Shown: positions 1-947 of the stretch, piece after piece
How positions within the stretch are numbered: the stretch's first letter is position 1
Layout: each line of letters begins with the position of its first letter
Source of the DNA: an uncultured archaeon
GTDB taxonomy: Archaea; Asgardarchaeota; Jordiarchaeia; Jordiarchaeales; Jordiarchaeaceae
Assembly: GCA_964510585.1 (NCBI GenBank)
Contig: CAZECW010000193.1
Coordinates: forward strand, 1-32,000
Length of the DNA: 32,000 nucleotides
Reading direction: 5' to 3'
Program-made: the position numbers and the translations under genes
Notes under the pieces: model-generated
The model's input: the letters and a program-made list of their open reading frames with translations, nothing else
Databases searched by the model: none
Told to the model about the DNA's origin: nothing

Positions 1-140
1 CCCCCATGAGGGTGCCAACATAGACGCCGTTCCCTTTGAGGGAAGGGCGTGTTAACTGGGTGATGGCACACCCATTGCTTCGAAGGCTCCCGATGAGCCA
101 GAAGCAAGAATCTCCCGACTTTAGTCGCGGAGAGTGTCAA
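1..140 (+). mobile_element. Right end of an IS200/IS605-family element (tnpB-type); the element continues beyond the left window edge
   Basis: Ends AGAATCTCCCGACTTTAGTCGCGGAGAGTGTCAA: GAAT guide tetranucleotide (108-111) at the foot of a subterminal hairpin (111-133, loop TTTA, bulged C128), then TCAA (137-140). Closely resembles the ISDra2 right end as I recall it (AGAATCACGCGACTTTAGTCGTGTGAGGTTCAA). Malic-enzyme homology breaks at this point. Confidence 0.9.
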
Positions 141-160
141 AACTCCAGCAACAGATAGTC
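1..160 (+). ncRNA. Predicted omegaRNA/reRNA (TnpB guide RNA) scaffold plus flank-derived guide
   Basis: Consecutive stems: 24-50 (ACGCC-G-TTCCCT/AGGGAA-G-GGCGT), 58-73 (GGGTG/CACCC), 75-107 (TTGCTTC/GAAGCAA enclosing GGCTC/GAGCC), 111-133 terminal hairpin. The guide would be the ~16-20 nt after TCAA (AACTCCAGCAACAGATAGTC). The 5' end is probably outside the window. Confidence 0.7.
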
Positions 161-947
161 CAATAAAAACGTCTGCGTCTTTGATTATGTCTGAGAGTTT
201 TCCTTCCCTTCTCTCAATGTTGGTGAAATGTGCCACTTCCTCTTTGTAGGGATTCATGTTATAGGGTCTGCCTTCATAGATTGCCCCCTTGCTGTCACAT
301 ACTGTAAGGTTTTTTACTCCCGCCTTTACCAGAAATTTTGAAACTGCAAGACCTGCTGCTCCTGCTCCATTAATCACCACTCGAACCTCCCCCAATTTTT
401 TGTCCACCACCTTTAATGCGTTTATTAGACCTGCCAAAACCACAACTGCGGTTCCATGCTGGTCATCGTGAAAAACAGGTATATCCAACTCCTTTTTCAA
501 CTGAGCTTCAATCTCGAAGCAGGACGGCGCTCCTATATCCTCCAGATTTATTCCTCCAAAAATGGGAGCTATACGTTTGACTGTTTCCACAACCTCCTCT
601 GGCTTGTTTGTTGATAAACAAATGGGGAAGGCATCTACACCCGCCAACATCTTAAAAAGAATGGCTTTTCCCTCCATGACCGGCACCGCCGCATAGGCTC
701 CAACGTTTCCCAAACCCAACACTGATGAACCATCGGACACAACCGCAACAAGGTTTCCCTTAACAGTGTAATCATAAATCTTGGATGCATCCCTACTTAT
801 TATCTTAGAGGGCTCAGCTACTCCAGGAGTGTAAGCGAGAGCGAGCTCATGCAAGTTTCTTACCGGTGTCTTTGCAACCACCTCCAGTTTACCATTACCA
901 GGAGGATTATTCCTATGATAGTTTAGTGCCTCATCTTTTAGAGACAT
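141..947 (-). pseudogene. maeA: NAD(P)-dependent malic enzyme, N-terminal 269 codons, interrupted by the IS200/IS605 element
   Basis: Own translation from ATG 947 (RBS GGAGGT): MSLKDEALNYHRNNPPGNGKLEVVAKTPV...LAYTPGVAEP...VVSDGSSVLGLGNVG...VMEGKAILFK...GINLEDI...PVFHDDQHGTAVV...INGAGAAG...DADVFIGLSVAGV, then non-homologous IS sequence. Not in the ORF track because the frame has no stop before the window edge. Confidence 0.92.

Follow-up and report, generated by a model that had tools for sequence, protein, structure and literature searches.

The window analysed here, a stretch of 32 000 nucleotides, is the start of contig C193 of the MAG G000 (3.78 Mb, 217 contigs), and it opens with 140 nucleotides of structured sequence that run directly into a malic enzyme reading frame. 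From the letters alone, a preliminary description had taken these nucleotides for the right end of an IS200/IS605 transposon carrying an RNA scaffold of the type that guides the nuclease TnpB (an omegaRNA), with a tnpB gene just to the left or, alternatively, for a non-autonomous element that had retained the RNA. The locus raises the questions of what kind of element ends here, how it relates to the interrupted gene and whether its scaffold could serve as RNA. In our reading, which we hold with high confidence, window 1–140 is the right-end half of one copy, approximately 275 nt long, of a non-autonomous IS200/IS605 element (a PATE/MITE) with IS608-type signals; this confidence covers the reading as a whole, namely a PATE half-copy that is inserted in a malic enzyme gene, is derived by deletion and is moved in trans. 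The features of the locus, in window coordinates, are as follows.

1–140, forward strand: right half of a PATE/MITE copy of approximately 275 nt (very probably); consensus positions 140–279; the left 139 nt are absent, as the contig begins here
1–23, forward strand: internal spacer; AACATAG, its 3′ part, is left over from the 3′ coding region of tnpB
24–50, forward strand: helix H1; the sequence varies and the hairpin is kept in 20 of 20 homologues, with both-side changes in four of five counted pairs
57–74, forward strand: helix H2, a 6-bp stem with a 6-nt loop, AUGGCA; 95% of cells paired
64–68, forward strand: 5′ strand of a pseudoknot (UGGCA of the H2 loop), with its partner at 135–139; 100% of cells paired in 20 sequences
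75–107, forward strand: helix S3; closing stem UUGCUUC/GAAGCAA kept, both-side changes in six pairs
108–111, forward strand: GAAT, lying 5′ of the palindrome as the right guide tetranucleotide (G_R); invariant in all copies and identical to G_R of IS608
111–133, forward strand: IP_R, the right subterminal imperfect palindrome and predicted TnpA binding hairpin, from the fold; AU-to-GC exchange in seven of 20
133–140, forward strand: tail AGTGTCAA, with TCAA (137–140) as the right cleavage site and last element base in 74 of 74 junctions
141–160, forward strand: flank, the would-be guide of an omegaRNA from this copy, judging from TnpB biology
141–947, reverse strand: malic enzyme gene (Pfam malic and Malic_M), interrupted by the insertion after its first 269 codons

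Repeat family and boundaries

Approximately 80 places in G000 match window 1–140 at 95–100% identity, and the identity reaches 99–100% for the right half of 29 full internal copies and for about 45 contig-end halves. The tally of copies is 29 full internal ones, with about 45 right halves and about 45 left halves at contig ends. The search for other copies with different flanks that the preliminary description had proposed yielded 74 distinct right junctions, all of which end in TCAA and are followed by 74 different 3′ flanks. On the left side, TTAC precedes the repeat at 89 of 89 junctions, the surplus over the right junctions (89 versus 74) belonging to tnpA-bearing elements. Window position 140 is the exact end of the repeat; since this position coincides with the repeat end at 74 distinct junctions with differing flanks, the feature is not a product of chance.

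The extent of the element is given by the 27 copies whose upstream sequence is visible for 400 nt or more, in which similarity runs only about 139 nt further and stops at a TTAC-preceded left end. The consensus measures 279 nt including TTAC, which gives an element of approximately 275 nt. Internal copies consist of the left end, about 275 nt and the right end and of nothing besides. No ORF fits in them; a remnant of the tnpB C-terminal frame, NWVMAHPLL...SRGECQ, is present and resembles the TnpB C-termini NWAMAHPL and NWVVAHPLL, and in the TnpB-linked ends of contigs C8 and C54 the stretch AAACATAGGTGCCG is the homologue of the spacer at 1–23. As the visible copies continue for about 139 nt to a TTAC-preceded left end with no ORF, the idea of a tnpB just to the left is not supported, and the other option of the preliminary description, a non-autonomous element retaining the RNA, agrees with the genome.

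Dozens of G000 contigs end with 138–141 nt of this element. Overlaps of this length at contig ends are typical of a k-mer assembly that has been broken by a repeat, with k presumably 141, and the window begins inside the element because the assembly broke within a repeat of about 74 copies. The left half of the window copy lies off the contig, and the assignment of this copy as a PATE is made through its 99–100% identity to PATE copies and the lack of a tnpB-linked copy that has this sequence. A solo right-end remnant of 36 nt, 100% identical to window 105–140, was also seen at C136:4663–4698 of G000, with no recognizable scaffold or left end upstream.

Insertion in the malic enzyme gene

Homology of the malic enzyme ORF is lost at position 140/141. 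A genome of the same genus, G003, contains a 98%-identical uninterrupted allele of 421 codons (locus L042), which at this point reads ...gctggagtt/GTAAGCC..., equivalent to TTAC (element strand) joined directly to window 141 onward; GTAA and 152 further codons follow beyond the insertion point. To judge from the two alleles, the G003 site is a textbook empty site without duplication, and the element would have landed within the malic enzyme gene on the 3′ side of a TTAC. The preliminary description had named as adverse outcomes a genome free of tnpB, left ends and other copies and an uninterrupted malic enzyme allele containing the same sequence; other copies, left ends, tnpA and tnpB are all present, and the uninterrupted allele is free of the sequence.

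The occupied junction between the right end and the malic enzyme gene was found in Logan contigs of three hot-spring metagenomes (X1–X3), of which X1 may be the one this DNA came from. In a further run (X4), from a diverged strain, a 906-nt contig aligns from exactly position 141 (window 141–303, with five differences in 163 nt) and leaves approximately 716 nt hanging; it probably represents a malic enzyme allele, free of the element, from another hot-spring population. In G000, the final 152 codons of the malic enzyme gene were not found among the left-junction flank translations, with Pfam Malic_M or by tblastn and blastn with the G003 C-terminus. The missing 3′ part was either lost on a short unassembled piece between repeats or separated by a rearrangement at this copy. 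The annotation of the locus is corrected accordingly: a mobile element interrupts a malic enzyme gene, and the contig ends here because a repeat broke the assembly, and not at a nuclease locus.

The host itself can be placed to some extent. A full-length eukaryote-like actin is encoded at C156:3223–4332 (forward strand) of G000 (456 bits to Pfam Actin), and none of four control archaea gave any actin match. The runs containing the locus are hot-spring metagenomes, and the actin and these runs are consistent with an Asgard archaeal host. No SSU rRNA was found in the G000 MAG; a profilin search gave no match in G000 and likewise none in the control genomes.

End signals

The left end of the element consists of TTAC, then 18 nt ending in AAAG and then the palindrome CCCCCGAC-TTTA-GTCGTGGGG, and the right end of GAAT, the palindrome CTCCCGAC-TTTA-GTCGCGGAG and AGTGTCAA. 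Both ends bear subterminal imperfect palindromes, IP_R being near-identical to the left-end palindrome of the same element, and the ends are not mutual inverted repeats. AAAG and GAAT adjoin their palindromes, as befits guide tetranucleotides. Insertion is specific to a tetranucleotide, lies 3′ of TTAC and involves no target-site duplication, as seen at 89 of 89 left-end junctions and at the G003 empty site. In IS608 the left and right cleavage sites and guides are TTAC (C_L), AAAG (G_L), GAAT (G_R) and TCAA (C_R) (PMC5934647; for C_R also PMC3201880), with TTAC 19 nt 5′ of IP_L and TCAA 10 nt 3′ of IP_R (PMC3201880). The identity of the four tetranucleotides and the junction data support the earlier recognition of an IS200/IS605 right end with IS608-type signals. 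By analogy with IS608, TnpA would excise and insert the top strand of the element as single-stranded DNA.

RNA scaffold

Folded as RNA, window 1–160 forms the hairpins 24–50, 75–107 and 111–133 with a minimum free energy of −65.9 kcal/mol, versus −45.6 ± 4.2 kcal/mol for shuffled sequences (z = −4.84; 0 of 200 shuffles as good). A further hairpin, 57/58–73/74, is seen on folding window 21–140 and has the best covariation support of all helices. The four hairpins that the preliminary description had drawn (24–50, 58–73, 75–107 and 111–133), together with its GAAT and TCAA tail, all proved to be correctly placed when the letters and the RNA folds were checked.

Covariation was assessed in an alignment of 20 right ends: that of the window, 13 TnpB-linked ones from other archaea and, from G000, three that are TnpB-linked and three belonging to copies of a second, older short family; the presence of 16 TnpB-linked ends in this alignment establishes homology to the right-end region 3′ of tnpB in TnpB elements. 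Each of the 20 ends folds alone into the same H1, H2, long S3 and IP_R. For the structure used in the count, which was specified by the analyst, 91.8% of cells are paired versus 43–52% when the partners are slid by 1–3 columns, and both-side changes occur in 18 of 38 pairs; the observed values were reached by 0 of 500 shuffles. H2 shows GC, CG, AU and UA exchanges at three of its six pairs, and the pseudoknot between 64–68 and 135–139 shows two compensatory AU-to-GC changes, in the Methanomethylicales and Jordarchaeia rows. In the C8 and C54 ends, H1 and the short S3 were misplaced by MAFFT, and covariation in these two ends is therefore under-counted. All helices are intact in the window copy, and its S3 interior is shortened compared with the TnpB-linked homologues, as is also the case in the TnpB-linked C8 type. 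Rfam gave no gathering-threshold match in the window and none at E ≤ 1 on a full copy.

The covariation of IP_R may reflect the DNA hairpin needed by TnpA. H1, H2, S3 and the pseudoknot are not known to be required by TnpA, and they therefore point to RNA. As judged by comparative sequence analysis, window 1–140 carries a genuine TnpB omegaRNA scaffold in a shortened form, and the earlier assignment to this scaffold type is upheld by the covariation of its helices and pseudoknot in TnpB-linked ends. A covariation-backed, four-helix, pseudoknotted omegaRNA scaffold is defined, which is common to a TnpB clade of many thermophilic archaeal lineages and absent from Rfam; both points bear on the suggestion in the preliminary description that it may be a distinct archaeal omegaRNA type.

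Transposase and nuclease genes elsewhere in the genome

Y1_Tnp genes (113–129 bits) are located on contigs C7, C169 and C162, with a truncated one on C81. Those on C7, C169 and C162 begin approximately 40 nt behind a left end that is 90–95% identical to element positions 1–64, and at least nine such tnpA-type left ends occur in G000. Their products retain the HUH (HLH) and tyrosine (NSY) motifs, and the presence of these genes together with the shared left end marks them as encoding the putative cognate Y1 (HUH) TnpA. TnpB genes are found on C81 (424 amino acids) and C204, with pieces on C7, C169 and C8. In the autonomous insertion sequence tnpB follows tnpA, and only residues ∼1–192 (C7 and C169) and ∼280–387 (C8) of it are assembled. 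The TnpB-linked right ends on C8, C54, C152 and C45 are 75–78% identical to the element over the scaffold; in the right end on C81 only the last 41 nt match, with 93% identity. Since G000 encodes TnpB, and also TnpA behind the same left end, at loci other than this one, mobilization and any RNA use would be in trans.

The element on C81 (C81:5075–6787, reverse strand, corresponding to L034:1315–2988) is a complete insertion sequence with a single 557-amino-acid ORF. This ORF fuses a TnpA remnant, which has YIQ in place of HUH and matches Pfam Y1_Tnp over profile positions 22–121 only, to the 424-amino-acid TnpB, which has OrfB_IS605 and Cas12f1-like TNB domains. For the tnpB copy at C7:11–605 (reverse strand), the alignment to the C81 TnpB falls into two overlapping segments that lie in different frames, so that this copy is frameshifted; that on C169 is open to the contig end. 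In the clade of the C81 TnpB, glycine occupies the canonical RuvC-II glutamate position in every homologue (C81 aligned with L079–L088), the motif being IVLG[RK]L versus LALEDL in the classical TnpB on C204. A conserved glutamate in SEY/ERxTSS, approximately 45 residues downstream of this glycine, may be the relocated catalytic residue; relocation of the glutamate is known from TnpB and Fanzor clades. Relatives of the C81 TnpB, mostly with 54–83% identity over the best aligned segment, come from MAGs labelled Bathyarchaeia, Nitrososphaeria, Archaeoglobales, Methanomethylicales, Terraquivivens, Culexmicrobium, Thermoprotei and Jordarchaeia, and their right ends have the form ...GAAGCAAGAAT-hairpin-AGTGTCAA.

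Origin and related short families

The element would have arisen as an internal-deletion derivative of a tnpA–tnpB insertion sequence, retaining the left end of its parent together with a TATA-like box and the final ∼120 nt, which include the scaffold overlapping the tnpB end, the TnpA hairpin and the cleavage site. Element positions 1–64 correspond to the left end of the tnpA-bearing insertion sequence, positions ∼65–96 resemble its tnpA-proximal region, with GGTATATAAATAG in the element where the insertion sequence has GGTGTATTGATAAAT, and positions ∼145–279 correspond to the tnpB 3′ end and the right end. Between the TATA-like box and the tnpB remnant lies a module of ∼45 nt (GTAGCTGAAGGG...; consensus positions 97–145). 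Its pattern, GTAGCTGA...GGCTA[AG]ACAAGAC.CAGCC, recurs in a second family of G000, and at locus L067 of the sister species G004 (C77:12593–12737) the module follows a left end and precedes unrelated sequence. Private substitutions among the copies amount to approximately 0.17% per site, so that the burst is very recent and a selection test has no power.

The second family, older and also protein-free, measures approximately 328 nt, and its copies are 81–91% identical (C58:28227–28557, C107:6906–7233, C21:145–398 and C32:13043–13377 of G000); it has its own TATATATT box and the same H1, H2 and IP_R, with a differing S3 interior. G004 possesses a separate protein-free family of 210 nt, in which the tnpA-proximal A/T box is fused approximately 12 nt upstream of H1 (loci L061, L064, L049, L055, L069 and L058, at about position 1500 in each). 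This family is an independent deletion derivative of the 'promoter plus minimal scaffold' kind. H1 through the right end is kept in all three short families, that is, in both families of G000 and in the 210-nt family of G004, and PATEs of only 52 bp seem mobile in Haloquadratum (PMC3119063). Taken together, the two observations are a weak argument that something besides TnpA accounts for the retention of the scaffold. The exact family is found only in G000; G001, G003 and G004 have related but different families, and none was found in G002 and G005. Among 201 genomes of the phylum, 14 match the element, mostly to its last 35–41 nt.

Proposed RNA function and alternative explanations

In the G003 empty site, TTAC is followed on its 3′ side by exactly the sequence of the flank at window 141–160. 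A function in trans can be imagined, and we put it forward tentatively, at somewhat less than even confidence: the copy would be transcribed into an omegaRNA with the malic enzyme flank (141 to ∼160) as its guide, and a TnpB from elsewhere would cut TTAC-flanked empty sites. Transcription could start from the TATA-like box or occur by read-through, the RNA would carry window 141 to ∼160 as its guide, and cleavage of empty sites by TnpB in trans, followed by recombination that restores the element, would favour its retention. The broader proposal that the ∼74 copies act as dispersed stand-alone guide-RNA genes, driven by the TATA-like box and loading TnpB against their own empty sites, takes this box as retained from the promoter region of the tnpA of the parent, and we consider it slightly more doubtful. 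If it were true, retention would be secured by the non-autonomous element itself, which could explain the recent burst in this Asgard-like archaeon. In three of the host tRNA upstream regions (only five were parsed), an A/T box ending in ...AATAG or similar is found, like the TATATAAATAG of the element, but so small a sample carries no weight. No RNA run was listed with the 3-kb window stretch, and one metatranscriptome showed a word share of 0.08 for the element. Our reading also has to reckon with the divergence of the TnpB-linked right ends in this assembly and with the lack of the canonical RuvC-II glutamate in the C81-type TnpB clade. Should such RNAs be expressed, a naturally shortened scaffold of ∼120 nt and a TTAC TAM would be of interest for compact thermostable TnpB editors.

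The competing account of the same mini-transposon, to which we assign an even chance, is that its RNA scaffold is inert: the helices would be a recent leftover of the tnpB end of the parent, and the element would persist only as a TnpA substrate, with no omegaRNA made or used. The burst is very young, and with so few private changes per site (0.17%) the scaffold could be intact simply through recency; the nearest TnpB-linked scaffolds are 22–25% diverged and no RNA run containing the locus was found. Against an inert scaffold speak the three separately derived short families that keep H1, H2, S3 and IP_R with a TATA-like box upstream, the apparent mobility of the far shorter 52-bp PATEs in Haloquadratum, the covariation of the scaffold helices across archaeal lineages and the statement of Meers et al. 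that PATEs often encode omegaRNAs.

Two further accounts concern the identity of the window sequence itself. It could terminate, on the right, a full-length autonomous IS200/IS605 element whose tnpB, and perhaps also tnpA, would lie directly to the left, given that the contig begins inside the repeat, so that the left side of this copy is unseen, and that TnpB-linked right ends of the same architecture exist in the genome (C8, C54 and C81). This is very unlikely, however: the window is 99–100% identical to the protein-free copies and only 75–78% identical to TnpB-linked ends, 27 of 27 copies with at least 400 nt upstream continue as the short element, all contig-end partial copies match the element consensus, and on no contig of the assembly is a tnpB 3′ end joined to the exact window sequence. 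That the hairpins instead belong to the malic enzyme locus as a structured host RNA or a regulatory element (a terminator, riboswitch or CRISPR-like repeat) that has nothing to do with transposons has hardly any probability; strong structure would suit it, but approximately 74 copies scattered over unrelated sites and bounded exactly by TTAC and TCAA, an orthologous G003 site without the element, the lack of an Rfam match and a location inside rather than beside the coding sequence would not, and a host structured RNA is refuted by the copy and junction data. The half-copy of a non-autonomous PATE is retained as the identity of window 1–140.

Comparison with known elements

With IS608 of Helicobacter pylori the element shares all four cleavage and guide tetranucleotides, insertion 3′ of TTAC and asymmetric ends bearing subterminal imperfect palindromes. 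It differs in lacking an internal tnpA or tnpB, in its archaeal host, in palindrome sequences that are unrelated and in its spacing, with 18 nt (versus 19 nt) from TTAC to the palindrome and a tail of 8 nt (versus 10 nt). The archaeal elements of the C81 type possess the same H1–H2–S3–IP_R–AGTGTCAA right end with covarying helices and end in TCAA or CCAA; unlike the window element, they have a TnpB of approximately 410–425 amino acids and a long S3 interior (∼60 nt).

Compared with the omegaRNA (reRNA) of TnpB from ISDra2 and Geobacillus, the scaffold is likewise encoded at the right end and overlaps the tnpB 3′ end, and it combines several helices with a pseudoknot adjoining the guide; DNA immediately flanking the element would supply this guide, and the TAM would be the TnpA target TTAC. 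In contrast to those RNAs, with which no sequence or Rfam similarity could be demonstrated, the putative omegaRNA here stands without tnpB.

PATEs (palindrome-associated transposable elements), protein-free derivatives of IS200/IS605, were defined in Haloquadratum walsbyi in 2011 (PMC3119063), and PATE-like elements that 'often encode omegaRNAs' have been noted in Geobacillus stearothermophilus (Meers et al., 2023; PMC10055086). The window element agrees with this class in its length of 275 nt, in having no intact ORF and only the remnant of the tnpB C-terminal frame, and in its 74 distinct 3′ flanks, its left end being common to tnpA-bearing copies and its right-end architecture to tnpB-bearing ones. 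Like PATEs, it lacks inverted terminal repeats and target duplication, has near-terminal palindromes in common with IS605-type elements, exists in many near-identical copies ('homogeneous PATE'), derives from a tnpA/tnpB element through loss of the interior, contains the omegaRNA region and would depend on TnpA and TnpB supplied in trans. It departs from them in residing in a hot-spring archaeon with a eukaryote-like actin, in the apparently very recent burst of approximately 74 copies, in the TATA-like box upstream of the scaffold and in the shortened S3. The concept of an omegaRNA-carrying PATE is already published, and the element adds a further example to the idea of Meers et al.; it documents a very young burst of approximately 74 copies of such a PATE in an archaeon with eukaryote-like actin.
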